Shown here piece by piece: positions 19,150-49,880 of a stretch of 53,142 nucleotides of DNA; positions within the stretch are counted from its first letter, which is position 1; every line of letters begins with the position of its first letter. The notes under the pieces were generated by a model. The model was not told the origin of the DNA. It saw only the letters and a program-made list of their open reading frames with translations, and did no database searches. The position numbers and the translations under genes are program-made. The stretch is taken from the IMG/VR virus record IMGVR_UViG_3300034682_000455, positions 1-53,142 of that record, one strand, 5' to 3'. Origin of the DNA: a virus (taxonomy: Duplodnaviria > Caudoviricetes).

Positions 19150-19190
19150 CCCCACTAGGGTTCGCTCCTGAGAAGCATCCTCGGAACACT
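19150..19190 (+). promoter_or_regulatory. Putative late promoter 1 (terS)
   Basis: CCCCACTAGGGTTCG then AACACT; final T 35 nt after the C of CTAG. Confidence 0.7.
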
Positions 19191-19197
19191 CCGGGGC

Positions 19198-19878
19198 ATG
19201 GCAAGCAGTACAGGCAAAGCACCCACCCCCACAAAGCCCCAGGTTGACTGGGAGCGCATCGCGCTGGACTACCGGGCAGCAATCAAGACGCTGCGCCAGA
19301 TCGCTGACGAGCACGGCATCTCGCATGGCGCCATCAACAAGCGCGCCAAGCGTGATGGATGGGAGCGCGACCTGACGGAAAAGATCCAGGCCAAGGCTGA
19401 TGCGCTGGTATCCAAGGCTGCAGTATCCAAGACGGTATCCAAAGAAGGGCGAGCGGCTGAGACCGCTGTCATCGAGGCCAACGCCCAGACGCAAGCCAGC
19501 ATCCGCCTGGCGCACCGCGCCGACATCGATCGCACCCGACGCCTGTGCATGCGCATGCTGGCAGAGCTGGAGCAGCAGAGCGCCGCGCCCGAGCTGCTGG
19601 GCGAGGTGGCCGAGATCCTGGCCGGCGTCCCGCCGGAGGAGATGACCAAGGCCCAGCGCGCGAAGCTGGCCGACGCCGCCGCCCGTGCGGGATCGCTGCA
19701 GTCCCGCTCCAGCACCATGCGGTCCCTGTCCGAATCGCTCAAGAGCTTGGTTGCCCTGGAGCGCCAGGCCTATGGCATCAAGGAGGAGGCCGCGCCGCCG
19801 CCAGACCCTGGTGTGGCCTCTTTCTCGACCGCTGACCTTTTTGCGATGCGCGATGCGCTCAAGAAGGGAGCCGCATGA
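19198..19878 (+). CDS. terS: Terminase small subunit
   Basis: DWERIALDYRA..KTLRQIADEHGISHGAINKRAKRDGW HTH; precedes TerL. Confidence 0.85.
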   Translation: MASSTGKAPTPTKPQVDWERIALDYRAAIKTLRQIADEHGISHGAINKRAKRDGWERDLTEKIQAKADALVSKAAVSKTVSKEGRAAETAVIEANAQTQASIRLAHRADIDRTRRLCMRMLAELEQQSAAPELLGEVAEILAGVPPEEMTKAQRAKLADAAARAGSLQSRSSTMRSLSESLKSLVALERQAYGIKEEAAPPPDPGVASFSTADLFAMRDALKKGAA

Positions 19879-20618
19879 ACGTCGACAACCTCTCACCCGC
19901 CCAGCGTGAAGCCATGCTGGCCTCCATCGAACTGGAGCTGTCCCGCCGCAAGATCGACAGCATGTACCCGGACACCGGGCCGCTGCGCCGCGAGCTGTAC
20001 CCCAAGCACATGGAGTTCTTCAAGGCCGGCGCCACCTACCGCGAGCGCTGCGCAATGGCGGCCAACCGCGTGGGCAAGACCGAGGGCATGGGCGGCTACG
20101 AAACCGCGCTGCACCTGACAGGCCGTTACCCGGAATGGTGGGAAGGGCGCCGCTTTGACCGGCCCGTGCGCTTCTGGGCTGCCGGCAAGACCAACGAAAC
20201 CACCCGCGACATCGTGCAGAACAAGCTGTTCGGCCCGGTGGTGGGCTCGGGCACGTCCAAGTGCTTCAGCGGCACCGGCCTGGTGTACGCCGACTGCATC
20301 GAGCGCGTGGGCTGGAAGCAGGGCGTGACCGACCTGGCCGACACCGTGTACGTCAAGCACGTCAGCGGCAAGTTCTCCGAGCTGGGCCTGAAGTCTTACC
20401 AACAGGGCCGGGGCAGCTTTGAAGGCACCGAGCGTGACGGCATCTGGCTGGACGAGGAGCCGCCGCTGGAGGTCTACAGCGAGTGCCTGATTCGCACGGC
20501 CACCACCAACGGCATCGTGTACATCACCTTCACCCCCCTGGAGGGCACCACCGGCACGGTGATGATGTTCCTGGAGGGCGAGCAGGAAGCCAAGGAGGAG
20601 CCACTGTGCCTGCAGTAA
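19875..20618 (+). CDS. terL: Terminase large subunit, N-terminal ATPase part (P22 gp2-like)
   Basis: AANRVGKT Walker A, LTGRYPEWWEG, IWLDEEP Walker B, ITFTP coupling motif. Confidence 0.92.
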   Translation: MNVDNLSPAQREAMLASIELELSRRKIDSMYPDTGPLRRELYPKHMEFFKAGATYRERCAMAANRVGKTEGMGGYETALHLTGRYPEWWEGRRFDRPVRFWAAGKTNETTRDIVQNKLFGPVVGSGTSKCFSGTGLVYADCIERVGWKQGVTDLADTVYVKHVSGKFSELGLKSYQQGRGSFEGTERDGIWLDEEPPLEVYSECLIRTATTNGIVYITFTPLEGTTGTVMMFLEGEQEAKEEPLCLQ

Positions 20619-21370
20619 GCGCATTCCGCTACCTGGTGACCGCCGGCTGGGACGATGTGCCCCACCTGGACGAAAAGACCAAAAAGGAGCTGTGGGCCAG
20701 CTCGCCCCCGCATGAGCGCGAGGCCCGTGCCAAGGGCATCCCGACGCTGGGCAGTGGCCGCATCTTCCCCGTGGAAGAGAACAGCATCAAGGTGCCGGCG
20801 TTTGCCGTGCCGCCGCACTGGGCCCGCATCAACGGTATCGACTTCGGCTGGGACCACCCGACCGCAGCGGTGCAGCTGGCCTGGGACCGGGACAACGACT
20901 GCATCTACGTGATCCAGGCGCACCGGCTGAGCCACGCCACGCCGGTGATCCATGCCTCCACCATCAAGCCCTGGGGCGACTGGGTGCCCACGGCCTGGCC
21001 GCACGACGGGGAGCAGCACGACAAGGGCTCTGGCGAGCAGCTGGCGCTGCAGTACGCCAAGGCTGGTTTGAAGATGCTCAAGCACCGCGCCACGTTTGAA
21101 GATGGCTCCAACGGTGTGGAGGCCGGCCTGATTGACATGCTGGACCGCATGCAGACCGGGCGCTGGAAGGTGTTTGCCCACCTGGGCGACTGGTTCCAGG
21201 AGTTCAAGCTGTACCACCGCAAGGACGGCAAGGTCGTCAAGAAGCTGGACGACTTGATGAGCGCAAGCCGCTACGCCTTGATGATGAAGCGCAAGGCCAT
21301 CACCCAGCCCAAGCCGCAGCGCCCGATAACCGGTGGCTGGGCGCCGCTGGATCAAGAAATGGGGTACTGA
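20606..21370 (+). CDS. terL: Terminase large subunit, C-terminal nuclease part
   Basis: HEREARAKGIP.LGSGRIF, GIDFGWDHPTA, WPHDG, DDLMSASRY; GTG start 7 nt after AAGGAGG. Confidence 0.9.
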   Translation: MPAVSAFRYLVTAGWDDVPHLDEKTKKELWASSPPHEREARAKGIPTLGSGRIFPVEENSIKVPAFAVPPHWARINGIDFGWDHPTAAVQLAWDRDNDCIYVIQAHRLSHATPVIHASTIKPWGDWVPTAWPHDGEQHDKGSGEQLALQYAKAGLKMLKHRATFEDGSNGVEAGLIDMLDRMQTGRWKVFAHLGDWFQEFKLYHRKDGKVVKKLDDLMSASRYALMMKRKAITQPKPQRPITGGWAPLDQEMGY

Positions 21371-21371
21371 A

Positions 21372-23582
21372 ATGCAAGCAACCGCTAACAACGGGGGCGT
21401 GCAGCCCCAGGGCGCCGAAGCGCCAGCCATTGATGACCGCCAGACCCTGCTGCAGAACCTGCTGGCCAAGCGCCGCGAGGCGATTGCTGGGCGTGCTGGC
21501 TCGGGCATCGAAGAGGAGTGGACCGAGGACGAGGAGCACTACCAGGGCATCGATGATGCCAACCGGGCATTCCAGTCGGCCAACATGCTGTACCGCAGCC
21601 GCAGCAAGGCGCTGCTGTCGGGCCAGCAGCAGGGCCAGCAGCCCGCGCGCTCCGTGGTGTTCCTGAACATCACACGTCCGTATGTGGATGCGGCCAGCGC
21701 CCGGGTGGCCGACATGCTGCTGCCGACGGACGACCGCGCCTGGGAGATCAAGTCCACGCCGATTCCGACGCTCAGCCAGCTGCAGCTGACCAAACTGGCC
21801 GAGGCGATGCGAATGCCCAGCACGGATGATGTGCAGGATGCGATGGAGCAGCAGGCCAAGCTGGCCCAGGAGGCGGCTGCCAAGATGCAAAAGGCCATCG
21901 AGGATCCGCTGGTGGAGTCCAACTGGCACGGCGAGGTGCGTCAGGTGATCGAAGACTCTGCGCGCTGCGGCTCTGGCGTGCTCAAAGGCCCGTTCCCCGT
22001 GGTGCGGACGGTGCGCTTGACGCGCCAGGACCCGGTGACCCAGCTCAAGACACAGCACAAGGTGGACGAAATCAAGCCTGGCAGCAAGCGCATCGACTTC
22101 TGGAACCTGTTCCCGGATCCAGCCTGCGGCGAGAACATCCATACCGGCAGCTTCATTTTTGAGCGCGAGTACATCGGCAAGCGCCAGATCCTGGAATTGC
22201 TCAAGGATGCGAGCTATGACCGTGCGGAGTTGCTGGCCGTGCTGCGCGAGGGCCCGGCAAAGACCCGGGAGGGCACGGAGTCGGTCTACCGCCATGGCGA
22301 CGACGAGTTTGAAATGTGGATCTTCCACGGGCACTGCATGCGTCAGCAGCTGCAGGCCATGGGGGTGGAGCTGGACCACGACGCCGAGGAGCAATTGCCG
22401 GCCATGGCGGTGATGATCAACGACCGCCTGGTCAAGGCCGTGCTCAGTCCCTTGGAAAGCGGCGAGTTTCCCTATGACGTGCTGGCCTGGCAGCGCCGCC
22501 CAGGTATGCCCTGGGGGATTGGCATCAGCCGCCAGATCCGTACCGTGCAGCGCATGATCAATGCCAACACACGCGCCATGATGGACAACAGCGGTCTGTC
22601 TGCCGCACCGCAGATCGTGATCGGCAACGGTATCACGCCAGTGGATGGCGTCTTCTCGATCCGTCCCGGCAAGCTCTGGCGCGCGGAAGCTGGCAGCGAT
22701 GTGCAGGACGTGACCAAAGCCTTTGCCAGCTTTTCGGTGACCAGCGTGCAAAACGAGCTGATGAACATCATCCAGTTCGCCCAGAAGATGGCCGAGGACA
22801 CCACGGGCATGCCGGCGATGCTGCAGGGCATCCGTGGCGATGCTCCGCAGACCCTGGGCGGCATGCAGATGCAGAACAACAATGCCACCAGCGTGCTGCG
22901 CCGACTGGCCAAGCGCTTTGACGACTACATGACGCGACCGCACATCCAGCGCTATTTCGACTGGATGATGAGCTACAGCGACGACGACAGCATCAAGGGG
23001 GACTTCGAAATCGAAGTCCGCGCATCTTCAGCCCTGGTGGAGCGGGACGCCCAGCAGCAGTTCCTGATGTCGCTGCTGCAGGCTTCGGCCAACCCGGTGT
23101 ATGAGCTGGATCCGGCCAAGCTCGCGGCCGAGCTGTGCCGTGGTCAGCGCCTGGACCCGAAGAACTTCCAGCTGACAGAGGAGCAGAAGGCCCAGCGGGC
23201 ACAGCAGGGGCAAGACCCCACCATGCAGGCCAGGGCCAAGCTGTTCGGTGCGCAGGCAGAGAAGGCCCTGGCAGACGCCGAGCGTTTGCAGGCCCTGACC
23301 GTGGGCGCCCGGGTGGAGGCCCAGTACAGCGGGGTGCAAACTGCCCAGGTGATTGAGCAAATACCCGGCACCGCCACCACGGCCGATGCGCTGCTGCGTT
23401 CTGCCGGCGCCAAGGACATGGATGCCGCGCCCATCGTGCCCCAGGCCAGTGGAGCAGGGGAGGTGCCGGACATTGATATGCCCACGAACACCAACCCGCT
23501 GACGCCGGCCAATCCAGAAAGCCCCGCCGTAGGGATGCAGGCCGGCATCGAGACGCAGGCGAACGACGGCGTACGGACCTGA
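21372..23582 (+). CDS. Portal protein
   Basis: 736 aa between terminase and scaffold; TTGMP..LQG, TLGGM.M..NNA portal-like motifs. Confidence 0.85.
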   Translation: MQATANNGGVQPQGAEAPAIDDRQTLLQNLLAKRREAIAGRAGSGIEEEWTEDEEHYQGIDDANRAFQSANMLYRSRSKALLSGQQQGQQPARSVVFLNITRPYVDAASARVADMLLPTDDRAWEIKSTPIPTLSQLQLTKLAEAMRMPSTDDVQDAMEQQAKLAQEAAAKMQKAIEDPLVESNWHGEVRQVIEDSARCGSGVLKGPFPVVRTVRLTRQDPVTQLKTQHKVDEIKPGSKRIDFWNLFPDPACGENIHTGSFIFEREYIGKRQILELLKDASYDRAELLAVLREGPAKTREGTESVYRHGDDEFEMWIFHGHCMRQQLQAMGVELDHDAEEQLPAMAVMINDRLVKAVLSPLESGEFPYDVLAWQRRPGMPWGIGISRQIRTVQRMINANTRAMMDNSGLSAAPQIVIGNGITPVDGVFSIRPGKLWRAEAGSDVQDVTKAFASFSVTSVQNELMNIIQFAQKMAEDTTGMPAMLQGIRGDAPQTLGGMQMQNNNATSVLRRLAKRFDDYMTRPHIQRYFDWMMSYSDDDSIKGDFEIEVRASSALVERDAQQQFLMSLLQASANPVYELDPAKLAAELCRGQRLDPKNFQLTEEQKAQRAQQGQDPTMQARAKLFGAQAEKALADAERLQALTVGARVEAQYSGVQTAQVIEQIPGTATTADALLRSAGAKDMDAAPIVPQASGAGEVPDIDMPTNTNPLTPANPESPAVGMQAGIETQANDGVRT

Positions 23583-23655
23583 TCGACTCACCCCACCTTC
23601 CAGCCCTCCTGGTGCACAGCCTGGAGGGCTTGTTTTATTGGGGAGCGCGGCACGC

Positions 23656-23697
23656 CCCCGGCTAGGGATTCGTCTTTGTGGCGCCAAGCCAGAAACT
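23656..23697 (+). promoter_or_regulatory. Putative late promoter 2 (head operon)
   Basis: CCCCGGCTAGGGATTCG then GAAACT, T at +35. Confidence 0.7.
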
Positions 23698-23704
23698 GCC
23701 AGCC

Positions 23705-23920
23705 ATGACGAATTCGGCCATCGACTTCCACTCGCCAACCTGGCGTGCCATCGCGGACAAGGCGCAAGCACAGCTGGACACGTTGCGGGTGAAGAACGAC
23801 AGCCCAGCGCTGGATGCGATCCGCACGGCAGAAACCCGTGGCCGCATCGCAGCGTGGAAAGAGTTACTGGCGATGGCAGATGACAAGCCAGCCCCAGTGC
23901 AGGAGACCCCCGCCTATTGA
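23705..23920 (+). CDS. Small head-module protein (71 aa)
   Basis: T...RGRI...KELL motif; position after portal. Confidence 0.75.
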   Translation: MTNSAIDFHSPTWRAIADKAQAQLDTLRVKNDSPALDAIRTAETRGRIAAWKELLAMADDKPAPVQETPAY

Positions 23921-23956
23921 GGCCGAGGTCGTTGAAACCACAGGAGTGCATGACGC

Positions 23957-24883
23957 ATGAACGTAGAAGACCAGCAAGCAGAGCGCGCAGCGTTCGAACA
24001 GGGATTTGCACAAGCTTCCGGGCAGCCCGCACCAGCCCCCGCCGCGCCTGCGGCCGAGGCGCAAGCGACCTCCCAGACTGAGCAAGCTCCTGCCGCGCAA
24101 ACCACTGAGCAGCCCGGTGAAGCGCCAGGCGCTGCCAGCACCACGGCGGAGGGTGCAGCGGCACCCCCTGCAGACGCTGGCCCAGCCGAAGGTGAAGACC
24201 CGGTGGTGTTCGGTGGCTACAAACGCAGCGAGCTTGAACGCTTGGTGGAGCAGGCCGGCAAGGTGACCGATCTGGCACAACAGCTGCGCAAGGCCCAGGG
24301 AAAGATTGGCGAACTCAACAGCAAGCTGCAAACCCAGGCCCCGGCGCAAACGACAGCACCGACGCAACAGAAGGTTGCGCCCGAGCTGCCGCCAGAGCTG
24401 GTGCAGTTCGAGCAGGACTTCCCGGAGTTTGCGACCTACGCCAAAGCGGTGATCGCCGCCCAGCAGCAGCCCACACCGGCAGCCCCGCCCGCCTCAGTGC
24501 AGCAGACCGTGGCCACGGTTGCAGCACCGGCGTCCGCCGAGCTAGACCCTGTGGCGATTGAGCTGGCCGTCATGGATCGCATGCACACAGGGTGGCGTGA
24601 GAAGGTGCAGGGGCCGGAGTTCAACTCCTGGCTGGCAGCCCAGACCGAGGCGGTACAGACCGCGTTCGGCGAGGCAGACACCGCCGATGCGCTGGCGGCC
24701 GTCATTGGTCAGTTCGATCAGTGGTCGAGCGCCAAGCAGGCCCAGGCCCAAAAGCAGCAAAAGGGCCAGCAGCGCCTGGCAGCCGCGGTGACGCCGCAAG
24801 GCAACGCGCCCAAGCCCCAAGCCACGCCTACCGAAACTGACGATTTTCATGCTGGCTTCCAGTCAGTGATGGGCCGACGCTAG
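23957..24883 (+). CDS. Scaffolding protein
   Basis: Ala/Gln/Pro-rich with coiled coil; immediately before the capsid gene. Confidence 0.75.
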   Translation: MNVEDQQAERAAFEQGFAQASGQPAPAPAAPAAEAQATSQTEQAPAAQTTEQPGEAPGAASTTAEGAAAPPADAGPAEGEDPVVFGGYKRSELERLVEQAGKVTDLAQQLRKAQGKIGELNSKLQTQAPAQTTAPTQQKVAPELPPELVQFEQDFPEFATYAKAVIAAQQQPTPAAPPASVQQTVATVAAPASAELDPVAIELAVMDRMHTGWREKVQGPEFNSWLAAQTEAVQTAFGEADTADALAAVIGQFDQWSSAKQAQAQKQQKGQQRLAAAVTPQGNAPKPQATPTETDDFHAGFQSVMGRR

Positions 24884-24899
24884 GCCCGAGGAGAAAACC

Positions 24900-25934
24900 A
24901 TGACTCAATTCGCTTCCGGCGCCCCGGCGCCACGCATCGGCAAGATCAAGGGCGAGATCCTCGCCCACGCGATTGCCACCGAAGTGCTGGGCATTTGCGG
25001 CCAGCAGCGCCCCCTGCCCAAGAACCAGGGCAAGACCGTGATCTTTCGCCGCTACCTGCCCTACGGTGCGACGAACACCAACTGGGACACGCGCAACCGT
25101 CCGGCGGTCGACGCCGCCGCGCACGAGCTGGTCGAGGGTGTCACGCCCACGGCCGACAGCCTCACGCCTCAGGACATCACGGCGGTGATCAAGCAGTACG
25201 GCTGCCTGTACCAGTTGACCGACCAGGTGGCCGACACCTATGAAGACGACGTGCCTGCGGAAATGAAGAAGCAGTGCGGCGAGCGTGTGGGCCTGCTGCG
25301 CGAGATGATCCGCTACGGTGGCATCAAGGCCTGCACGAATGTGTTCTTCGCTGGTGGTTCTAGCCGTGCCACGGTGGCCAGCAAGATCACGCTGAACCTG
25401 CTGCGCAAGATCAGCCGCAATCTGCAGGCCAACCATGCCAAGCGCATCACCGGCATCCTGGCGCCATCGGCCGACATTGCCACCCAGCCGGTGGAAGCGT
25501 CGTACCTGGTGTTTGTGCACACCGACGCCGAAGCCGATGTGCGTGATCTGGCTAACTTCGTGCACGTCAGCGAGTACGGCAGCCGCAAGCCGGTGCATGC
25601 CCAGGAGCTGGGTTCTTGCGAGAACTTCCGCTTCGTGACCTCGCCCGAGCTGGCGCCGTACCTGGCCGCCGGCGCCGATGTGGCCGCAACGGGCCTGATG
25701 GGCACCGGCAAGGTGGACGTGTACCCGTTCATCGTGGCCGGCGAGGACGCCTGGGGGCAGCTGGCGCTGCGCGGTGTGGACGCGATCGATCCGACCTACA
25801 TCCCCGTGGGCCAGAAGGACAAGTCCGACCCCCTGGGCCAGCGCGGCTACGTGGGCGCCAAGTTCTACATGAACATGACCCTGCTGAACGAGGGCTGGAT
25901 GGCCATCGCTGAGGCCGGCGTCTCCTCCCTGTAA
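24900..25934 (+). CDS. Major capsid protein, N4-gp56 family
   Basis: LPKNQGKTVIFRRY, L.EGVTP, KSDPLGQRGYVG.K motifs. Confidence 0.9.
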   Translation: MTQFASGAPAPRIGKIKGEILAHAIATEVLGICGQQRPLPKNQGKTVIFRRYLPYGATNTNWDTRNRPAVDAAAHELVEGVTPTADSLTPQDITAVIKQYGCLYQLTDQVADTYEDDVPAEMKKQCGERVGLLREMIRYGGIKACTNVFFAGGSSRATVASKITLNLLRKISRNLQANHAKRITGILAPSADIATQPVEASYLVFVHTDAEADVRDLANFVHVSEYGSRKPVHAQELGSCENFRFVTSPELAPYLAAGADVAATGLMGTGKVDVYPFIVAGEDAWGQLALRGVDAIDPTYIPVGQKDKSDPLGQRGYVGAKFYMNMTLLNEGWMAIAEAGVSSL

Positions 25935-26006
25935 CCCAAGTCCCAGCGCACCCCAGGCGGGTGTGCTGGGCAGCCTTTCACCCCAATACCTCACAGGACG
26001 ACCAAC

Positions 26007-26477: not shown

Positions 26478-26494
26478 GCTGAAAGCTGGCTGCG

Positions 26495-27145: not shown

Positions 27146-27187
27146 CCCCGGCTAAGGTTCGCGGATAGGTGGACGTTCCAATGAAAT
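27146..27187 (+). promoter_or_regulatory. Putative late promoter 3
   Basis: CCCCGGCTAAGGTTCG then TGAAAT, T at +35. Confidence 0.62.
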
Positions 27188-27230
27188 CAAGGCTCCCGAT
27201 GTGGAGCCTTTTTCATTTACAGGAGCAAGC

Positions 27231-27506
27231 ATGACCAGCACCGCCAAAGCGACCAGCAAGACCAAGACCAGCGCACCTGCCAAGACTGGCCGGCAAACCA
27301 GCGTCGCACCAGCAGCAAAAGCCCAGGAAACCTCGCAGGCCCAGCAGCAGGCCGCTGAAGCACCAACCAGTCGCAAGTTCGAAAGCTCTGACGCGCTGGC
27401 GCATTACATCCAGCACAACCCTGAATTCGGCACGCGACCTTTGGATGAGCAGAACGAACTGCGTACCCAGCTGGTGCAGGCCAAGCGTGTCGAAGCGGTT
27501 GGCTAG
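27231..27506 (+). CDS. Hypothetical protein (91 aa, Thr/Ala/Lys-rich N-terminus)
   Basis: AGGAG RBS before ATG 27231. Confidence 0.65.
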   Translation: MTSTAKATSKTKTSAPAKTGRQTSVAPAAKAQETSQAQQQAAEAPTSRKFESSDALAHYIQHNPEFGTRPLDEQNELRTQLVQAKRVEAVG

Positions 27507-27672: not shown

Positions 27673-27712
27673 CTTGAGCCACAACTTAAGTAGTCCGCTC
27701 TAGGCTCGTAAC

Positions 27713-29559: not shown

Positions 29560-29602
29560 CCCCCGCTAAGGCTTGGGCTCGTGGTTGCTGTTGCGCGAGA
29601 CT
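29560..29602 (+). promoter_or_regulatory. Putative late promoter 4
   Basis: CCCCCGCTAAGGCTTG then GAGACT, T at +36. Confidence 0.6.
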
Positions 29603-29631
29603 GCACCTCAAGCAACCAATGAGGTACCCCC

Positions 29632-30965: not shown

Positions 30966-30968
30966 GCA

Positions 30969-31010
30969 CCCCGGCTGGGGTTCGCGCGTATGGATGGCGC
31001 TGGGCAAAGT
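30969..31010 (+). promoter_or_regulatory. Putative late promoter 5 (giant protein)
   Basis: CCCCGGCTGGGGTTCG then CAAAGT, T at +35. Confidence 0.65.
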
Positions 31011-31016
31011 GGGTGC

Positions 31017-34000
31017 ATGAGCACACAGAACCCCTTTGCAGATCCCAATTTTGGGCGCAGTGATGCACCGGTGAATGGGCAGCCTTCAGCCAGCAATCCG
31101 TTTGCAGACCCTGACTTTGGCAAGGCACCAGCCACCCCCAGGCGCTCCCTCCTGGCCGCCATCAACGACACCGTGATTGAAGGCGCCAACGCGGCAGCCG
31201 GCACTGCATCAGCGGTTGCTAACTTTGTGCGTCCTGGCAATGCTGCCTCGCAGTGGATCGATAAGAACATTGTCGAGGCCGGCGAAGCCGCGCAGTCCGA
31301 TGTGGTCAAGGCCGAGAAGGCGCGCTACAGCCAGGAAATGCAGGACGCCGATGGAATGGGCGGCGAGGTCGGGGCCACGCTGGGCTACGTGGCGCGCAAT
31401 CCGTTGCTGGCGGCGGCACAGGGTGCAGGCTCCTTTGCCACCCCGGGCGTGGCCATCAAGGGGGCAACCGCTGGGGCGCGTGCCCTGGGCCTGGGCACTA
31501 AGGGCACGACCCGGGCTGGCTTGGCTGCTGGCGCGGGTGTCGGGGCGGCTGGCGCCGGCGGCGATGCCGCGGGCACGGCCTACGAACTGTCCCGGGAAGG
31601 CGGGGCCACCGACGAGCAGGCCCTGGCAGCCGGCCGCAGTGCCAGCGTGCTGCCAGGCCTGATCGGCGCGGCCGGCGGCCTAGTGGGGGCGGAGCGCCTG
31701 GTGGCCGGCGCCGGAGGTTTTAAGGGCGGTCTGGTGGCCCGGGCCCTGAAGACTGGCGCCGTGGAGGGTGCTCAGGAGGCCCTGGAAGAAGGCGTGACCC
31801 AGTACGAGGGCCAGCGCGCGGCCGTTCCGTTCAATCCTGAGTTGGACCCCATGAAGGGCGTGGCCGGCGCCGCCACCATGGGTGCCGTGCTGGGCGGCAT
31901 GACCGGTGCTGGTGCTTCGGTGCTGACACCTTCGCAGCACCTGGGCATCGATCGCGCCAACGGTCCTTTGTCGAGAGTGGCAGCTGACGCCGTAGACAGC
32001 GCCCCCGCCGCAGAGCCTGCGCCAGAGCAGCCGCCAACACCGCTGCAGCTGGCCTACAACCCCGACCCCATGATTGTGTTCCCCGATGGAACCACGGGCA
32101 CGCGGGCTCAGCTGGACGCCTACATCGAAGGCTTGCCAGAAGACCAGCGGATTGCCGCACGCGCCCGCTTGATGGGGATGGCGCCGCAAGCGGCTGACTC
32201 GCACTTGCCGCCAGAAGGCTGGCAGGAGCAGTACCAGGACCAGCCGGTGCGCGAGCTGCCACCGGTGGCCAACCCGCTGGCCGATATGCAGCAAGCCGTG
32301 CGCGAAGCCACCGACTACACGGACGCCGGCAAAGTGGAGGCGGTGCGTGGCGAGTTGGAGGATGCCTGGCTGGCGCTGAACGTGGGGGAGGCCCAGCCGG
32401 TGGCCGCCGGCCAGGCCAGCAACGAAGCCCAAGCCCCCCAGGATGCCGACCCTGCCGACCTGACTACAGAAACGAATGCCCGCCTGCGCGCTGGCCGTGT
32501 GGCCAGTGGCGTGCGCAATGCATTCGACGGTGGGGCACCCAACACCTTGCGCGTGATCCAGCACGTGAACCAGGGGCTGCGCACGATTGGTGAGCAGCCG
32601 CTGACATCCCCAGAAATCGCCCGCATCCGCCGCCTGGCCGACGCCCGCACAGCGTTCGCAGGCCTGAACCAACGCGCCGATTTGCCTGCGGATCCAGCTC
32701 CGGCCGTCGATGCGAATGCCGACAACAGCGCCATGGAGGCGCTGATTCCCGAGCGCCCCGCGCTGCAGCCGGCCATGGAGCAGGGCACGCCCGGTGGCGC
32801 TGCAGCCCCGGCGCAGCGCACACCAGCCGGCAATGCTGACATCGCAGGGGATCGTGTCGGTGGCGAGTGGGTGGCATTTGGCCCCAGCTCCGGCACCTTG
32901 GGTGTCCCACGTGCCCGGATGCCCCAGGTCGATGCCGCACACCGTGGCGCCCTGGTCAATTACCTCAAGGGCCAGGGTATCGCCAGCGAGCAGGCCGAAG
33001 TGCCCGCTAACAGCCTGAAGCCGACCCAAGCGGAATTCTCTGAAGCCAAGGTGCGCAAGGCATCCAAGCGCACCGGCGGTGACCGCGCCATCTTGGTGTC
33101 GTCGGACGGCTACGTGGTGGACGGCCACCACCAGTGGCTGGCCAAGCGCCAGGACGGCCAGCCCGTGAAGGTCTTGCAGCTGCAGGCGCCCATTTCCCAA
33201 TTGTTGCCCCTGGTGGGCGACTTCCCCAGCGCCCGCACCGCAGAAGGTGCGCAGGCCACTTCCCAAGGACAGCCAAGCAATGGTCCCGCCACGCCTCTCA
33301 ACGATGAATCGCAAGCAGCAGCGCCGGATGCGCCGCAAGTTCAAACGCCAGGGTCTGCAGTCCCCCAGCAAGAAGGGGTAGCCGATGCCACGCAAACCAC
33401 TCAAGCCCAGCAGATTGGCGCGCAGCCTCAAGCGCAAGCAGCAGCGGGAGCACAAAGCGCAGAACCGCCGTCCGCACCGCAATTGGATGTCGCGCCAGGC
33501 GTAGCACGCAAGCGCACGGCCGGAGACAACGCCCGCAGCCGCAGCTATGACGCCAATCCCATGCGCGCATTCTTGGGCAAGCATGGAGTGTCATTGAACA
33601 GTCGCAGCGAGTTCGCCCCAGGCCTGCAAGAACTGCGCGGCACCATGGTTCCAGGCTATGGGCCTGTGTTTCGCAAAACAGGCAAACCCCTGGACTTGCT
33701 GGTGCACAACGCCATCGAAGAAGGTTTTTTGCCAGAAGGTGCCACGGATGCCGATCTGTACGAACTGATCGACCGTGCGGTGCGTCGCAGCGAGCGGGTG
33801 GACCCCATGTTCACTGCCGATGCGGCAGAGCAGCAGATGCGTGCAATGTTCGACCGTGAAGCCCAGCTGCAAATGGAGGCACAGCAGGCCATTGACGAAG
33901 AGGTGGCCGCTTACGAGGCGGTCCTTGCACAAGAGCTGGCAGACACGTACAGTGCACAGGAGCTGGAAGCGATTGACGCGGCAATTCCTTTTGATGCACC

Positions 34001-41671: not shown

Positions 41672-41673
41672 CA

Positions 41674-41715
41674 CCCCGGCTAGGGGTGGCAGCAAGTGGC
41701 AGGCCTGGAGAGACT
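41674..41715 (+). promoter_or_regulatory. Putative late promoter 6 (tail operon)
   Basis: CCCCGGCTAGGGGTGG then GAGACT, T at +35. Confidence 0.68.
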
Positions 41716-41849
41716 GGCGCCAGTTTCAGTAGGCCGGCCATTCCCATTTGCTTTTGGCGATCACTCCGCACGGATTGGTGGCTGCTGATTTTCCAAGTGC
41801 GCGGATCCTGGTCTGTGCACCTTCAGCAACCTCGTGAAGGAGTGCCACC

Positions 41850-42251: not shown

Positions 42252-42263
42252 GGAGCCACTGAC

Positions 42264-43433: not shown

Positions 43434-43443
43434 GGCGCTGACC

Positions 43444-44295
43444 ATGGCTGTTGCGACCTCTGCCCTGGGCGTCCATGCCATTGCCGGCGGGGTGCCGGCC
43501 GCCGCCCCGGCGCCCAGCGTGGCGGCCGTGCTGCTGGATGCCGGCGCCCTGGGGGCCTGCGCCATCGGCTTTGCCGCCCTGGGCGCCGAGGTGCTGCAGG
43601 TGGCCAGCCCGCCACCGCCCGCCCAGGCGGTGCTGCGCAGCGCCGGCGCCATCGGGGCGTTGGCCATCGGTGACGGCGCCCTGGGGGCAGTGGAGCTGAC
43701 GGCCGGCACGCCCGAAGCTCCCACCCAGGAGGTCCACGCCCAGGGCCTGCTGGCCACGCGCTTCGGTGGCCCGCACACGGCACAGCCCTGGTATGGACCC
43801 GCCGGCGGCCTGGCCCCGGTGCGCTTTGGCGCCGCGGCGCTGCAGCTGCGGGCCGAGGGCCTGGGCCTGCAGCAGCCGTTGGCGCAGTTCGGCGGGGCCG
43901 TGGCCTCCCAGGTGTTCGTGCGTGAGCAGGGGATGGCGCCACAAACCCGGTTCCCCGGCGCTCTGCTGGTGCAGGTGGTGCACGCGGCCGGGGCTGCGCC
44001 TTCGGCCCGCATGGGGGGCCTGTCCGCGGGCAGCGTAGCCAGCCTGCAAGGTGCTGGGCCGCTGGCCCAACTGGGCCCGCTGTCGGCGCAGCTGGTGGTG
44101 CAGGCCCAGGGCATGGCCTCTCAAACCCGCTTCGGCGGCGCCACGGCGCTGGGCAAATCCGAGGCCATCACCGAGGGCTACCAAGGCACCCAGTACGGGC
44201 AGCTGGCGCTGGCGCGCACGACCGTGTTCGCGCATTCCCTGCCGCCGACCACGCGGTTTTCACGGCACCAACTGCAATGGGGGCAGCGATGCTGA
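43444..44295 (+). CDS. Gly/Ala-rich repetitive tail protein
   Basis: Repeated AGA.GA.AIG..ALG and G....TRFG units. Confidence 0.6.
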   Translation: MAVATSALGVHAIAGGVPAAAPAPSVAAVLLDAGALGACAIGFAALGAEVLQVASPPPPAQAVLRSAGAIGALAIGDGALGAVELTAGTPEAPTQEVHAQGLLATRFGGPHTAQPWYGPAGGLAPVRFGAAALQLRAEGLGLQQPLAQFGGAVASQVFVREQGMAPQTRFPGALLVQVVHAAGAAPSARMGGLSAGSVASLQGAGPLAQLGPLSAQLVVQAQGMASQTRFGGATALGKSEAITEGYQGTQYGQLALARTTVFAHSLPPTTRFSRHQLQWGQRC

Positions 44296-45464
44296 CACTC
44301 AAGAAATTCACCGGCATCAACAACGTGATGCCCCTGGCCCGCCAGGGCAAAACCGAGCTGGCCAGCGCCCGCAATGTGGAAATCGGTCTGAGCGAGGAAG
44401 TCCGCCGCCGAGCAGGTTATGTGCGCCTGGATGACAACTGCCACAAGAATTTGTGGCAATCGCCGCATTTCATGCTCTTTACCTGTGGTGGCGACCTCAC
44501 AGCCCTGCACCCGGACGGTACCCGCGCGCTGCTGTATCCGGCGCTGGGCATGGTCCGGGTCTGGTACTGCGACCTGCCCGATGGCCGGGTGGGTTTCAGC
44601 AACGGGCTGATCTGCGGCATCACCGATGGGCGCAGCTGCATGCCCTGGGGCGTGCCGCTGCCCCAGCAGGCGGGGCAGGCCCAGGCCGTGGCCGGCGGGC
44701 TGGATGCCGGCACCTACCTGTATGCCCTGGCCCATGTGCGTGACAGCGACGGGCTGGAGGGCGGGGCGGTGCTGGGCGGCCAGGTCGAGGTGCCCCAGGG
44801 CGGCGGCATCCTGATCCAAGGCCTGGCGGTCGAGCCCGGCCACGGCACCCAGGTCTACCTGTCCAGTCCCAACGGCAGCCAGCTGTTCCTGGCAGGCTTC
44901 ACCCCCGGCGGGGCCTTCAGCTTCCTGGGCACGGCCGACAACCTGACCGTGCCCTGCCGCACCGAGCACCTGATGCCGGCCATGCCCGGGCGCCTGATGA
45001 CCTGGTGGAACGGCCGCGTGCTGGTGGCCGATGGCAGCGTGCTGCGCGCCTCCATGCCCTTCCAGCCCGAGCTGTTCAATGGCCTGGGCGACTTCTACCA
45101 GTTCACCGCGCCCATCACCGCCGTGCAGCCGGTGGACGATGGCGTGTGGGTGGGCACCGAGCGTGAGCTGGCATTCCTGGCCGGCAGCAGCTTTGACGGT
45201 TTGGCCTACCGCAATGTCAGCAACGAGGGCGTGGTGCTGGGCTCGGGCGTGAGCGTGCCGGGCGACATGGTGGGCTTGGGTGATGGCGGGCGCGGCTCGG
45301 GCACCGCCATGCTGTGCATCCTGGGCGGCAGCATCACCGCCGGCCTCAACAGTGGCACCCTGCGCCGCATCACCCAGGGCCGCTACCAGACGGCCGCGCG
45401 CGAAGTGGCCGCCACGTTCCGGCTTGAAAACGGGGTGCCCCAGTACCTGGCCGTGGAGCAGTGA
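44289..45464 (+). CDS. Putative tail nozzle/tube protein
   Basis: F.GINN...L..ARNV......RRAGY N-terminus typical of podovirus nozzle proteins; beta-rich. Confidence 0.65.
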   Translation: MLTLKKFTGINNVMPLARQGKTELASARNVEIGLSEEVRRRAGYVRLDDNCHKNLWQSPHFMLFTCGGDLTALHPDGTRALLYPALGMVRVWYCDLPDGRVGFSNGLICGITDGRSCMPWGVPLPQQAGQAQAVAGGLDAGTYLYALAHVRDSDGLEGGAVLGGQVEVPQGGGILIQGLAVEPGHGTQVYLSSPNGSQLFLAGFTPGGAFSFLGTADNLTVPCRTEHLMPAMPGRLMTWWNGRVLVADGSVLRASMPFQPELFNGLGDFYQFTAPITAVQPVDDGVWVGTERELAFLAGSSFDGLAYRNVSNEGVVLGSGVSVPGDMVGLGDGGRGSGTAMLCILGGSITAGLNSGTLRRITQGRYQTAAREVAATFRLENGVPQYLAVEQ

Positions 45465-47545
45465 TGCTGAACAACCCGTTCTGGCTCCAGCTCGATGGCA
45501 CCCCGACCGAGGCGCGCCCCCCGGCGGCCCTGCGCGTGCTGCAGCGGCCGATTTCCAAGGCGCAGCTGGCCGGCGTGCAGCACCTGTATGGCCTGTTCGC
45601 TGCGCAGATGCGCCTGTCGGTGGCCCCCGGCCAGCAGTGGGAGCGCTTCTTGCCGGATGGCACGCGGGTGCTGCTGCGCTCGCATCGCGGGAAGGACGAG
45701 GTGCTGGTGTGGCCAGCGGACGGCGATAAAGACGAGCATGTATGGTTCTTTGCGCCGTACAACCGACTGCTTACTTTCAGCAATGTGCAAAAGCAGGGCT
45801 CGGTGCGCCGCTCAGACAGAAGTGTTCGCAGCGTTCAGTCCTTGGACGGGGTGCTGTCCTCTTGGGAAGTCGTCGTCGGCACTGGCACCGTCAACAACGC
45901 GAAGCTATCGAAGTTGGCGCGGACCGAGAAAGAGCAAGCCACCGGGTACACCCACGTTAAGGCGTGGTCACACAATGGGGAGGACAAATGGCGCTACCTT
46001 CCCGGACTGGTGGATAAAAGGAATGTGTATCTAGGCACGTACCTGCATGGCAAGGTGAGCGCCAACGCAACAACGGGGCAGACTATTTCTGTAACCGGCG
46101 CCGCGCCCGTAGTCATCCCAGGCACGCGCCAGCGGCTGATGACGCCAAACACCAATTTGATCGCCTTGCCGGGACTGCCAGCGCCCAAGCCGCCTACCCA
46201 GTTGCTGGCTGCGCCCGTGGGCTTGCGCAATAAGGCCATCGTGTACGGCACCTCTCGGATGTATGACACGCTGACCAACACTGCGATTGGTGTTGGCATC
46301 CACCCTTACGCGCCAAACCTGCATGACCCACTTGGCAAGCGCGCATTGTTCATCGTGGAATGTGCGATTGAAGGCACGGCCCCCTATGCGAACTTGAACC
46401 CGGGTGGCGCGGCGTCTGTGGCCGGGACGAGCTACCACGACTATGCGGTGGTGCGTGTGCGCAGGCAGAACCCCAACAAGGCGCCTAAGACAAGCGTTCT
46501 TTTCGCGGGCAAGCTGGAATTTGTGTGCAACGCGCGCACCGCTTGGGTCTATTTCGCGCGGTATGTGACCTTCTCACCGGACGGCTCCAAGGTGTGCGTG
46601 GCCATCCACATGTACGCCGACTGGCAGCTGGCTGCGCGTGCGCACACCCTGCAAGACATTCGGGACAGCCTTGGCGTGGCTGCAGCGTGGGAGTTCACGC
46701 TATCGGGCGGCACTCAAAAAGACTGGCCGACGAGCCAGATGCGGCAGGTGGTCAGCCCGAGCGACCACAAGACAACTACCACTGTGGTGCAGCCCAAGCA
46801 GGTCTATTTTCGGGAGGCATCCGTATCGGAGGGGACCAGTACCATCACGGCGTATGGACCTAACGACGAGTATTTAAACGGCCAGTCGCGGTATTACGGG
46901 TCACAGAGCTTTGCCTATGTAGATCGGCTGACGGACGACTTTGTATCGGTGGTGGAGGAAAAACCACTGATGGCGGAGTACGGCAAAGACAGCACGCTCA
47001 AGGTCATCACAAACCGCATCACCCAGCAGACGGAGCTGACTGACCTCAAGCCCTACACGACCAAGCCCGCCTTTGTGGAGTATGACTGCATTTTGGGTGT
47101 GTCGTGGTACGTGCGGCCACCGGACTTTGTGGAGAGCTACGACTACTCGTTTGAGCAGAGCATCGAGCGAAGCATTCTGAGCAACGGCGCCCCGGTCTAT
47201 AGCGCCAAAACAACCCGGACTTATCGCCGGGGGGTGAAGGGCACCTTCACAGCTTCGCTGACGAATCCGCCGTGGACGGCCACTTACGAGTACCTTGATT
47301 ACACGCAGCCCCAGGCACTACCTACCGCCGATTCATTCAGGACAGTGCCCTTGGGCTCCAACAACACATTCATTGTGCTGGGGATGGCCAGATCGGGCGA
47401 TGGGCAGAACACGCGATTGATGGCCGTGGATCAGGTGCTAACAACGCTGGATGTGCTGCCCAAGGATTCCACGGGGCGCTATTGGTATTCGTGGAACCCC
47501 ATCACCGACGAAATTTCTTCCGGGGAGGGCACCGCTTGGTGCTGA
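45461..47545 (+). CDS. Putative receptor-binding tail protein (694 aa)
   Basis: GC-rich first ~90 codons, then a lower-GC Thr/Ser/Tyr-rich body; tail operon. Confidence 0.6.
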   Translation: MMLNNPFWLQLDGTPTEARPPAALRVLQRPISKAQLAGVQHLYGLFAAQMRLSVAPGQQWERFLPDGTRVLLRSHRGKDEVLVWPADGDKDEHVWFFAPYNRLLTFSNVQKQGSVRRSDRSVRSVQSLDGVLSSWEVVVGTGTVNNAKLSKLARTEKEQATGYTHVKAWSHNGEDKWRYLPGLVDKRNVYLGTYLHGKVSANATTGQTISVTGAAPVVIPGTRQRLMTPNTNLIALPGLPAPKPPTQLLAAPVGLRNKAIVYGTSRMYDTLTNTAIGVGIHPYAPNLHDPLGKRALFIVECAIEGTAPYANLNPGGAASVAGTSYHDYAVVRVRRQNPNKAPKTSVLFAGKLEFVCNARTAWVYFARYVTFSPDGSKVCVAIHMYADWQLAARAHTLQDIRDSLGVAAAWEFTLSGGTQKDWPTSQMRQVVSPSDHKTTTTVVQPKQVYFREASVSEGTSTITAYGPNDEYLNGQSRYYGSQSFAYVDRLTDDFVSVVEEKPLMAEYGKDSTLKVITNRITQQTELTDLKPYTTKPAFVEYDCILGVSWYVRPPDFVESYDYSFEQSIERSILSNGAPVYSAKTTRTYRRGVKGTFTASLTNPPWTATYEYLDYTQPQALPTADSFRTVPLGSNNTFIVLGMARSGDGQNTRLMAVDQVLTTLDVLPKDSTGRYWYSWNPITDEISSGEGTAWC

Positions 47546-47551
47546 ACTGAT

Positions 47552-47986
47552 ATGACCACCATCTGCATGAACACCCTCAATGGGGCAGTCACCGAGTTTG
47601 ACTGGAATTTTCAAAGCATCACCCCCACGCACGCCGGCGATGTGACCGGCCTGTATGCGCTGGGCGGCGATACCGATGCGGGCCGGCCGATTGACGCCAG
47701 CTTTATGACGCCATTGCTGCAGTGGCAGAGCAGCCTGCGCAAAGCCATGAGCGCGGTCTATTTCTCCATGTCCGGAGCGGGCGTGGGCAACTTGCATGTG
47801 CACGGCAAGGTGGGCCAGTGGGCCTATCCCTTCGCGGTGCGCGCTTCGGAGGTGTCCCGGGCTTCGCCGGGCCGCGGCATCTGCGAAAGCTACCTGGCCT
47901 TCGGCTTCAGCAACAAGGAAGGCGCGGCCTTCTCGATTGATGCCGTCGAGGTGGCCACCGTGGCATCCAACAACCGGAGGATCTGA
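47552..47986 (+). CDS. Tail-module hypothetical protein (144 aa)
   Basis: MNTLNGAVTE..., GRG....YL.F motifs; operon context. Confidence 0.7.
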   Translation: MTTICMNTLNGAVTEFDWNFQSITPTHAGDVTGLYALGGDTDAGRPIDASFMTPLLQWQSSLRKAMSAVYFSMSGAGVGNLHVHGKVGQWAYPFAVRASEVSRASPGRGICESYLAFGFSNKEGAAFSIDAVEVATVASNNRRI

Positions 47987-47988
47987 AC

Positions 47989-49830
47989 ATGGCAACCAAC
48001 CCCCAAGACCTGCAAAGCGCGGCCGAGCTGGTCAACAGCACGTTTGCGCTGGCCAAGGACTATGCTGACGCGGCAGAGGCCAAGCTGACCACCTTCACCC
48101 AGGCCCTGGAAACGTCGATCTACGCGCCGCCCACGCTGAGTGTGACCTGGCAGACCATGGCACCGCCCACGCTGGAGCAAGCACCCGCGGCGCCGGCCAT
48201 GCCCAACATCGCCTACAACCCGGCGAACGTGGGGGGCACGCCCGCACCATTGGCCGAGGCCATCCCCGACATTGACATTCCCGAGTTCACGGACACCCTG
48301 CCGCCGCTGGTCTTTCCGGCCGCGCCGGCGATCAATTACGGGGTGGTGCCCACCGTCCCCGCGGTGGGCAATGTGCCGGTGCCCGCCGCCCCGAGCGTCA
48401 GCATGCCGGGCGCGCCCACGTTCCTGGAGCTCAAAGCCGTGGCTTTCAGCGGGGTGAATCTGCGCGAAGACTGGCTGGACAAGCTGCAAGACGCCCCCCA
48501 GCTGGAAATCCTGGCCCCCACGCCCTACAGCTACCAGCGGGGCCCCGAGTACGCATCGCAGCTGCTGGACAACCTGAAGGCGGTGCTCAACCGCCGCATC
48601 GCCGGCGGCAGCGGCCTGGCCCCGGCCGTGGAGCAGGCCCTGTGGGCGCGGGCCCGTGACCGCGAGGCCGCCATTGCCCGCACCGGGGAAACCGAGGTGC
48701 TGCGCTTGCATGAGGCCCGGGGCTTTGTGCTGCCCAGCGGGGTGATGGCCGAGCAGCTGCGCCAGGCCAACCGCGACTACCTGGGCAAGCTCAGTGACTT
48801 GAGCCGCGACATTTCGATCAAGCAGGCCGAGCTGGAGCAGCAGAACCTGCGCGAAGCGATTGCCCAGGGCATGCAGCTGGAGGCCCAGCTGATGGACTAC
48901 AGCTGGAAGATCGAGCAGCAGACGTTTGAAGCCGCCCGCCTGATGGCCGAGAACGCGATTGCGGTGCACAACGCGCAGCTCGAGCAGTTCAAGGCGCTGC
49001 TGCAGGGCTACGAATCGTATGCCAGCGTCTACAAGACCATCATCGAAAGCCAGCTGGCCAAGGTCGAGGTCTACAAGGCCCAGCTGGCGGCCGAGCAGTC
49101 CAAGGCGGACATCAACCGCTCCCTGGTCGAGCGCTACAAGGTGCAGATCGAGGCCGGCATGGCCGAGGTCGAGATTTACCGCGCCCAGGTGGCCGCAGCG
49201 CAGACCCTGGTGCAGCTGGAGCAAGCCAAGATCGGCGCCGCCGGCGAGCAGGTGCGCGCCTATGTGGCGCAGATGAACGCCGAGACTGCCAAGATGGAAA
49301 TCTACAAGTCGGGCGTGCAGGCGGAAGCCACCAAGGTGGAGGTGTTCAAGGCCCGCGGGGCGGTGTATTCCACCCAGGTGCAGGCCCAGGCTGAGAAGTC
49401 GCGCGCCCTGGTGTCGCGCTTTCAGGCGCTGGCCCAGGCCAAAAGCTCCGAGTGGGAGGGCTACCGTGCCCGGGTGGCGGCTGAAGGCCTGCGCCTGGAT
49501 GCGCTGGGCAAGCAGTCGGCGGCCATGCTGGACGCCTACCGGGTGGCGAATGCGGCCATCCAGTCCAAGGCCGAGCTGCAAACCAAGGTGTGGGAAACCA
49601 GCATGCGCCAGTACGAGGCCGGCATCCAGGTGTCGCTGCAGACCGCGCGCATGAACAACGAGGCCGTGATCGCCGCCAACAACGCCCGCGCCGACGCGGC
49701 CAAGGTCGGCACCCAGGTGTTTGCCCAGCTGACGGCATCGGCCATGAACATGATGCACACCAGCGCCGGGATCTCGGGTTCTGCCAGCCGCAACGAGAGC
49801 CACAGCTACAGCTACGAGGGCACATCCTGA
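47989..49830 (+). CDS. Virion protein with Pro-rich N-terminus and long coiled coil (613 aa)
   Basis: GGAGG RBS; ARGF.LPSG motif; repeated V..Y.AQ heptads. Confidence 0.75.
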   Translation: MATNPQDLQSAAELVNSTFALAKDYADAAEAKLTTFTQALETSIYAPPTLSVTWQTMAPPTLEQAPAAPAMPNIAYNPANVGGTPAPLAEAIPDIDIPEFTDTLPPLVFPAAPAINYGVVPTVPAVGNVPVPAAPSVSMPGAPTFLELKAVAFSGVNLREDWLDKLQDAPQLEILAPTPYSYQRGPEYASQLLDNLKAVLNRRIAGGSGLAPAVEQALWARARDREAAIARTGETEVLRLHEARGFVLPSGVMAEQLRQANRDYLGKLSDLSRDISIKQAELEQQNLREAIAQGMQLEAQLMDYSWKIEQQTFEAARLMAENAIAVHNAQLEQFKALLQGYESYASVYKTIIESQLAKVEVYKAQLAAEQSKADINRSLVERYKVQIEAGMAEVEIYRAQVAAAQTLVQLEQAKIGAAGEQVRAYVAQMNAETAKMEIYKSGVQAEATKVEVFKARGAVYSTQVQAQAEKSRALVSRFQALAQAKSSEWEGYRARVAAEGLRLDALGKQSAAMLDAYRVANAAIQSKAELQTKVWETSMRQYEAGIQVSLQTARMNNEAVIAANNARADAAKVGTQVFAQLTASAMNMMHTSAGISGSASRNESHSYSYEGTS

Positions 49831-49838
49831 CCGTGTGA

Positions 49839-49880
49839 CCCCGGCTAGGGTTATGCGTTTGCCACCCTGGCCGAGACACT
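49839..49880 (+). promoter_or_regulatory. Putative late promoter 7 (lysis cassette)
   Basis: CCCCGGCTAGGGTTAT then GACACT, T at +35. Confidence 0.7.

Follow-up and report, generated by a model that had tools for sequence, protein, structure and literature searches.

How does a lambdoid prophage switch on its virion and lysis genes when antisense cargo breaks up the late region that encodes them? The question is raised by the IMG/VR provirus record IMGVR_UViG_3300034682_000455 (53,142 bp, 62% G+C, CheckV completeness estimate 88%), which was analysed over its whole length and is called the window here. To judge from its sequence, the window is an F116-like prophage with a lambdoid layout, and two antisense cargo stretches interrupt the late region on its + strand. 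An initial annotation had pointed to a bipartite motif of fixed spacing in front of the late gene blocks, and had read it as an activator box near -42 that drives separate transcription units in place of Q-type antitermination. We consider it probable that the seven copies of this motif are late promoters for a host sigma-70-type RNA polymerase (RNAP), each with a class II activator box, and that the 173-amino-acid (aa) product of gene 18233-18754 is the most likely activator.

The 12-nt box CCCCSRCTRRGG matches seven times in the window, always on the + strand and never on the - strand, whereas dinucleotide shuffling gives a mean of 0.30 matches and none of 100 shuffles reaches seven. All seven boxes are intergenic on a map of open reading frames (ORFs) and families, which bears out the initial annotation. 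Each is followed by a -10-like hexamer, separated from the box by 24 nt in six sites and by 25 nt in the site at 29560; counted as the annotation had counted, the hexamer does end 35 nt after the C of the CT in six sites and 36 nt after it in one. The genes downstream are, in order, terS, a 71-aa gene followed by the scaffold and major capsid genes, a 91-aa gene, a 429-aa gene, a giant gene, the tail block and the holin gene. The sites, with their starts, terminators and Shine-Dalgarno (SD) sequences, are as follows.

19149..19198, + strand: site P1; box 19149-19160 plus TTCG, hexamer AACACT at 19185-19190, terS ATG at 19198 after a 7-nt gap, no SD
19179-19184 / 19191-19196: inverted repeat of P1
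about 23601-23640: terminator upstream of P2
23656..23705, + strand: site P2; hexamer GAAACT at 23692-23697, ATG 23705 of the 71-aa gene, then scaffold, major capsid and adaptor
27146..27215, + strand: site P3; box directly 3' of the adaptor stop codon, hexamer TGAAAT at 27182-27187, predicted start about 27194
ATG 27231: 91-aa gene of P3, SD present
29560..29610, + strand: site P4; 25-nt spacer, hexamer GAGACT at 29597-29602, predicted start about 29609
ATG 29632: 429-aa gene of P4, SD present
30969..31017, + strand: site P5; box adjoining a terminator at 30943-30967, hexamer CAAAGT at 31005-31010
ATG 31017: giant gene of P5, 6 nt after the hexamer, no SD
41674..41723, + strand: site P6; box adjoining a terminator at 41634-41672, hexamer GAGACT at 41710-41715, predicted start about 41722
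ATG 41850: tail block of P6, SD present
49839..49947, + strand: site P7; box 8 nt past the tail-block stop, hexamer GACACT at 49875-49880, predicted start about 49887
49907-49933, then ATG 49947: terminator downstream of P7, followed by the holin gene, no SD

Allowing up to two mismatches to CCCCGGCTAGGG added only four matches, which is within the chance range (11 found versus 8.05 expected). A two-block weight matrix, trained on 48 sites from other phages that are not near-identical, placed the seven sites at the top with 18.3-33.1 bits, while the next match, leaving aside offsets of these seven, scored 9.9. Because the two-mismatch extras stay at the level of chance and the foreign matrix leaves a gap between 18.3 and 9.9, we conclude that there are exactly seven sites, none of them in the early region.

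What kind of element is this? If the hexamer is taken as positions -12 to -7, the 12-bp box would lie at -48 to -37 and the TTCG that follows it at -36 to -33; the 16-bp element CCCC-N3-T-R-R-GG-TTCG would therefore sit at about -48 to -33, abutting or overlapping the -35 region. The TTCG directly 3' of the box is conserved (T13 in 60, T14 in 73 and G16 in 60 of 77 unique sites collected from relatives) and is located where the TT of a -35 element with an 18-bp spacer would fall. The annotated absence of a conserved -35 holds in so far as a TTGACA-like hexamer scores at none of the seven sites, but it has to be qualified, as the TTCG supplies a vestigial -35 TT. The hexamers share a weak -10 consensus, G/A-A-N-A/C-C/A-T, with A and T kept at positions 2 and 6. 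A sigma-E-like reading, with GGAAC as -35, was discarded: nothing is conserved 16 nt further on, and the position falls inside different coding regions. The box itself is an imperfect dyad only (CCCC-N4-RRGG). On this geometry, a phage activator bound at the 16-bp element would recruit or open the host RNAP in class II fashion, and the late region would be divided into seven separately started units, several of them ending in intrinsic terminators and with cargo at their boundaries.

Relatives of the window were retrieved through the 173-aa protein. Box and hexamer are kept in them while the 20 nt between TTCG and hexamer vary freely, and, at the level of sequence, such conservation of two elements at a fixed distance is a phylogenetic footprint. 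The spacer of the 77 unique bipartite sites measures 24 nt in 67, 23 nt in five and 25 nt in five. Because A and T at hexamer positions 2 and 6 were a criterion for entry into this set, their presence within it is not independent evidence. The hexamer was tested independently on 58 unique IMG/VR contexts chosen by the exact 16-mer CCCCGGCTAGGGTTCG only, which come from the 80 loci listed of 104 stretches. The pattern NA...T stands exactly 24 nt after the 12-nt box in 47 of the 58, where about 2 would be expected from base composition, and one base off in a further six; an ATG follows 5-9 nt further on in 44.

Orientation and genomic distribution point the same way. Boxes co-oriented with the gene for the 173-aa homologue outnumber those opposed to it in each of five relatives (G001 6/0, G002 4/0, G003 4/1, G004 3/0, G005 3/1). 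With a loose box pattern, 61 loci gave 99 matches downstream on the strand of the gene (509 kb), 27 upstream (457 kb) and 39 on the other strand (966 kb). The condition that would have refuted the initial reading, a motif equally common in coding and host DNA, does not hold: a degenerate 16-mer run against about 26 Mb from five host genomes has 18 matches, 16 of them with the hexamer, versus two for the reversed control, and the box keeps to the prophages of these genomes. One complete 5.1-Mb genome (G025) carries three box matches, all 11-31 kb downstream of the homologue and on its strand, and none outside the prophage.

Cultured phages carry variants of the signal. Ahead of its terS, p42, p58 and holin genes, Pseudomonas phage F116 has CCCCC(T/C)GTA(A/G)GG at an unchanged distance from the hexamer, and its 47 kb hold four forward and no reverse box matches. 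Acidovorax phage AP1 has C(C/A)CC...TAGGGTTCG before terS and three other late genes. Phage Dartukuta encodes a 33%-identical homologue, followed by CACCCTGTAGAGTTTT-N20-TCAAAT-6 nt-ATG. We found no description of the motif in the searchable literature, though the F116 genome paper (Gene 2005) may contain an earlier mention. Searches on F116, late promoters, leaderless mRNAs and activators returned nothing on the present system, only Mu and Gram-positive systems; motif strings looked up in literature text gave no phage paper among the matches listed. The word "promoter" is absent from the phiC725A paper (PMC5217972), and passages of the VvAW1 paper have no bearing on the motif.

Which protein reads the box? 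The gene placed for the part, where lambda has Q, is the following.

18233..18754, + strand: candidate late activator gene (173 aa), last gene of the early-right operon

Its product, made last from this operon, would be the most likely activator. The protein matches phrog_8117 (unknown function), has no Pfam or NCBIfam family, and in a Pfam hmmscan gave only sub-threshold matches (DUF6262, ADH_zinc_N_2, bZIP_2, KfrA_N). Its closest homologues are in Comamonas genomes. Weak sub-threshold matches among 28 family members point to winged-helix families, and a profile search returned 459 cluster representatives with E <= 1e-3 and 289 with E <= 1e-10. In the searches made here, database names for the homologues are "hypothetical" or, in some records, "AbiEi antitoxin"; the Atlas returned hypothetical proteins only, with weak winged-helix leads, and a sequence search of the PDB with the protein-family profile gave nothing meaningful.

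An AlphaFold2 (AF2) model (mean predicted local distance difference test, pLDDT, 76) shows helices at residues 10-24, 30-37 and 41-55 and strands at 58-62 and 65-68, which make up a predicted winged helix-turn-helix (HTH) over residues 10-68, then a small beta unit (78-99) and a 65-residue long helix (101-165). The best Foldseek matches are winged-helix domains (Rpa2 WH, BrxR, IdeR/DtxR), with a probability of 0.99-1.0 but E of 0.05-0.1. Invariant residues of the family (D45, D46, H47, S49 and R50; L58, R59 and R60) map to helix 3 and the wing of this predicted fold, and in the model their invariance matches that of the box. Two copies were modelled as a parallel coiled-coil dimer with a score of 0.46, against 0.00 for the best control; in a benchmark that mark was reached by 20 of 30 proteins solved as one-chain pairs and by 1 of 23 solved as single chains. 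At least 83% of contacts recur between runs, with a partner pLDDT of at least 76. The model thus supports dimerisation, and the activator may be pictured as two N-terminal winged-helix domains joined by a parallel C-terminal coiled coil.

Protein and box also travel together. Among 19 large contigs chosen by the DNA 16-mer alone, none of which came from the protein-pattern scan, 18 encode a homologue (E 1e-16 to 1e-19). Homologue and box occur together in AP1 (42% identity) and in F116 (36% identity), where the homologue p37 lies directly 5' of terS. Could the sites be late promoters as described and yet be read by another phage or host protein, with the 173-aa protein acting as a repressor or an antitoxin-like regulator? 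The link drawn here between protein and DNA is not a physical one, several small ORFs without a family lie near gene 18233-18754, and the antitoxin names just mentioned are joined by weak AbiEi_4 matches in 6 of the 28 family members. We nevertheless judge this unlikely, since the gene is the only one found to be common to the Q position of the window, F116 and AP1, since nearly all of the box-chosen contigs carry its homologue, and since the most conserved residues of the protein fall in the predicted DNA-reading helix and wing.

About 390 nt (18755-19148) separate the gene from P1. They hold a terminator-like hairpin at 18795-18817 and, as their only ORF, a weak one at 18759-19133 on the - strand, which has no family.

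The initial annotation knew of no characterised counterpart for such a late-control system, and comparison with known ones does not bear this out. In P2, P4 and 186, one small phage protein (Ogr, Delta and B, respectively) turns on several late operons from promoters without a -35 element; these proteins are zinc fingers, and their sites, TGT-N12-ACA, are centred near -55. The present system differs from them in that the 173-aa protein has no Ogr_Delta Pfam match and the box is closer to the -10 element. The nearer analogue is the C protein of phage Mu. According to a study of Mu C (PMC2582627), C is a small dimeric phage activator of four late promoters, which have a -10 but no -35 element and are transcribed by the host RNAP holoenzyme; its binding site at them is an imperfect dyad of 16 bp with its centre at -43.5. 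The window shares with Mu a 16-bp imperfect-dyad element that would overlap the -35 region (here about -48 to -33) and the presence of several late promoters (here seven); a -10 without a -35 and an activator site of about 16 bp at the -35 region fit all seven sites, given the starts that we infer for them. Unlike Mu C, the 173-aa protein has no Mor family among its Pfam matches (E <= 1), nor is there one among the 25 listed of the 44 families matched by the 28 members. The predicted winged helix with a long coiled coil, the other box sequence and the leaderless-type geometry of about 60% of the sites also set it apart. Because the proteins are unrelated by sequence while the geometry is alike, we propose that the system operates in the manner of Mu C without belonging to the Mor/C family.

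Where do the transcripts begin, and how are they translated? Leaderless mRNAs are known from lambda cI transcribed from PRM and from many genes of Actinobacteria and Deinococcus, and a NANNNT -10 element 6-8 nt before an ATG without an SD sequence is the signature by which leaderless genes are called. The same arrangement recurs at our sites. An ATG lies 6, 7 or 8 nt past the hexamer in 11, 26 and 7 of the 77 sites (44/77, about 60%), compared with some 2.6 expected from a base-composition estimate. ATGs 5-9 nt past the hexamer open ORFs of at least 60 codons in 45 of 46 cases (median 226), versus 10/46 and 7/46 in the other frames; an SD-like 4-mer precedes only 7 of the 46, and the base before the ATG is C in 44. 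This pattern of ATG distance, long ORF and missing SD predicts leaderless mRNAs. At sites of other geometry the leader measures 16-130 nt and in most cases contains an SD sequence.

Three of the seven sites of the window are of the leaderless type, namely those before terS (19198), the 71-aa gene (23705) and the giant gene (31017), the start codons being ATG 23705 rather than GTG 23678 and 31017 rather than 30990. As their ATG stands 6-7 nt past the hexamer without an SD sequence, leaderless mRNA is predicted for units 1, 2 and 5, whose transcripts would begin at the A of the ATG or one base before it; units 3, 4, 6 and 7 would have ordinary leaders. The difference from known leaderless genes is that the first cistrons of phage late units, in beta- and gammaproteobacterial hosts, follow the arrangement as a rule, and that it comes with an inverted repeat around the -10 element. 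The F116 genome offers a related observation: an ATG at 4777, 8 nt after GACAAT (7 after ACAATT), opens a 296-codon terS ORF, and this predicted start is 75 nt upstream of the annotated one (4852).

The inverted repeat surrounds the hexamer at leaderless-type sites only, and its stem sequences differ between sites. These sites fold at -11.0 kcal/mol versus -7.3 with the 5' arm shuffled, and 20 of the 46 are in the best 5%. Native pairs of arms reach -10.07 against -8.14 for permuted ones, none of 300 permutations being as stable; the figures of these register-free tests are inflated by the relatedness of the sequences. Fixed-register covariation gave less: for pairs 31-36/43-48 the paired fraction was 55.2% against 54.2% in shuffles (135 of 500 as high), and for pairs 27-32/43-48 it was 59.8% against 56.9% (36 of 500 as high, with the covariation score reached by 8 of 500). 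It is unconvincing because the stems lie in different registers and both arms are GC-rich. Taken together, the inverted repeat is moderately supported by the sequences. The leaderless-type geometry, often accompanied by this repeat, is new here.

The repeat raises the question of whether the hexamer is a -10 element at all, since transcription might start upstream (for instance from the TAGGGT in the box) and the repeat might be a leader RNA hairpin or an N4-like hairpin promoter. In the promoters of the N4 virion RNAP, short GC stems close a small loop, with the centre about 11 nt upstream of the start; here, too, there is a short GC stem with a small loop, whose centre lies about 10-11 nt before the ATG, and a giant virion protein is encoded nearby. 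The phiC725A paper (PMC5217972) compares the giant protein of the F116 type, in its C-terminal part, with N4 gp50. Besides the arm-shuffling and permutation results, the sense strand has a slight folding advantage over the antisense strand (-9.96 versus -8.93 kcal/mol; better in 46 versus 30 of 76 sites, which are not independent), a weak comparison that is biased by the G/T ends of the hexamer itself. Against a role of the hairpin as promoter or leader, 31 leadered sites have the hexamer at the same spacing and no hairpin (-4.75 versus -4.32), which shows that the hexamer, not the hairpin, is the shared element. Covariation in fixed register does not rise above the shuffles, the last base of TAGGGT is lost in three of the seven window sites, and a GC-hairpin leader without an SD sequence would translate badly. 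Unlike in N4, moreover, the genes served are late, not early, and neither an RNAP domain or family nor a PDB relative was found for the giant protein or the other ORFs scanned. This alternative is in our view distinctly improbable.

If the hexamer is the -10 element, the inverted repeat lies 5' of the predicted start and would therefore be present only in read-through RNA. Tentatively, and with less assurance than for the promoters themselves, we hypothesize that SD-less first cistrons are translated only if transcription starts at their ATG, while the GC hairpin around the -10 element silences RNA that reads through from upstream. The hairpin would then stop, process or silence such RNA and, with the promoter, form a conserved double lock, transcriptional and translational, on the virion and lysis genes. 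Its range would take in Pseudomonas phage F116 as well as prophages of Comamonas, Delftia and Acidovorax, and it would be run by an undescribed family of winged-helix/coiled-coil activators. The leaderless-type hairpin is weaker where a canonical terminator lies upstream (-7.0 at 6 sites versus -10.7 at 40), a hint only, given the few sites.

The boundaries of the units fit separate starts. As first annotated, several boxes directly follow a terminator-like hairpin (those at 23656, 30969 and 41674), and antisense cargo genes precede two (SulP before 29560 and a Na/Ca exchanger before 41674).

27713-29239, - strand: SulP-family permease with STAS domain, between units 3 and 4
39910-41448, - strand: 99-aa ORF and Na/Ca exchanger (40369-41448), between units 5 and 6

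In G002 nothing fills the SulP slot, the two boxes being 941 nt apart, and G001 has + strand ORFs there; in the latter the exchanger slot contains a different gene, a 432-aa + strand ORF. Since the slots differ or are empty in relatives, the cargo sits at unit boundaries, in line with the idea that antisense cargo is tolerated between units. A separate observation comes from four sequencing runs, kept as assembled contigs, that were compared with the window. They gave no transcript starts or ends, and in the one true RNA library among them the SulP region is the only part covered (27644-29000, with a likeness of 95-99% or better), which may reflect a host copy of the gene.

At P3 the predicted start (about 27194) falls within the 5' arm of a terminator hairpin at 27189-27210. 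Unit 3 transcripts would therefore lack that arm, and the terminator could stop the head operon only. This layout of hairpin and start is kept, with changed loop bases, in G001, G002, L068 and L235. The P7 terminator, in contrast, lies 20-46 nt past the predicted start, and G001 has the same layout. Such a strong terminator before the SD-less holin ATG could attenuate or time lysis, and because it stands between predicted start and holin, some antitermination or attenuation may occur there. The proposal of separate units driven from a box near -42 instead of by Q-type antitermination thus agrees with the in silico tests as far as activation is concerned, but is less exclusive at unit 7 than first stated.

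Might the box be the loading site of a Q-like antiterminator, or serve activation and antitermination at once, with units linked by read-through? As with lambda Q, the candidate gene is the last of the early-right operon, just before terS; terminators lie between units, and the promoter-proximal terminator of unit 7 recalls lambda PR'-tR'. We regard this as very unlikely, because there are seven sites per genome instead of one, most of them without a downstream terminator (49907-49933 is the only one past a predicted start), because there are no strong constitutive -35/-10 elements and no Pfam Q family match, and because an ATG 6-8 nt past the hexamer leaves no room for a pause site. The window ORFs scanned likewise contain no sigma factor, RNAP or Q family. 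The least credible reading makes the box no promoter element but a stoperator-like repressor site as in mycobacteriophage L5, a recombination site at module boundaries or a methylation target; it draws on the asymmetry, intergenic position, single orientation and cargo-exchange setting of the box, and founders on the fixed 24-nt spacing to a -10-like hexamer, the fixed ATG distance, the lack of any copy in the early region and a gene placed for expression in lytic growth.

Several points weigh against activation by the 173-aa protein at these promoters. As -10 elements the hexamers are poor, and one of them, TGAAAT, has no A at position 2; plain activation leaves the strong unit 7 terminator (49907-49933) unexplained. 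The half-sites of the dyad are about 8 bp apart, which is tight for two winged-helix domains, and every winged-helix match of the protein in Foldseek has E > 0.05. One of the 19 box-bearing contigs has no homologue, in two of the box-chosen contigs a single box lies on the strand opposite to the gene, and in Shewanella phage Y11, which encodes a 35% homologue, there is a box-like sequence before terS to which the hexamer spacing does not fit. The co-occurrence of box and protein could reflect shared descent in one phage lineage and not a functional link, and other shared small genes may also be partners of the box. Weighing these points with the rest, we still hold that the seven sites are probably activated late promoters.

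The remainder of the window follows the lambdoid plan. Family scans gave, in the early part, the features listed below.

1-1101, - strand: integrase
leftward: early block with RecE/RecT-like genes
12947-13618, - strand: CI-like repressor, facing the Cro-like gene
13681-13905: Cro-like gene, opposing the CI-like repressor
14584-16943: replication genes, followed by RusA, NinB and gene 18233-18754

The late region on the + strand runs from terS (19198) through terL (in two overlapping frames), an SU10-type portal, scaffold, major capsid and adaptor to the 91-aa gene, the 429-aa gene, the giant gene (2966 aa, with LPD and MuF domains in family scans), the tail block 41850-49830, holin, lysozyme and spanin. 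The two terL frames (19875-20618 and 20483-21370) have counterparts in the relatives L009 (11677-12420 / 12285-13172) and L011 (12373-13116 / 12981-13868); as the split is conserved in both, it may be a programmed frameshift rather than damage. Beyond the lysis cassette, a DUF3732 protein is encoded at 51424-52884 on the - strand, possibly as cargo of the prophage end. Rfam had no match in the window, and megablast of 19000-31100 against phages gave none.

What would this mean for the phages concerned? If our reading is true, a function would be assigned to an unnamed protein family (459 representatives at E <= 1e-3), and late gene control would be explained in F116, long used as a generalized transducing phage of P. 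aeruginosa, as well as in many Comamonadaceae prophages. The signature of 16 bp plus hexamer finds late units and corrects start codons straight from sequence, and the protein with its sites would make a compact, orthogonal activator/promoter pair. A series of leaderless late genes, as predicted here, would be unusual for phages of Proteobacteria.

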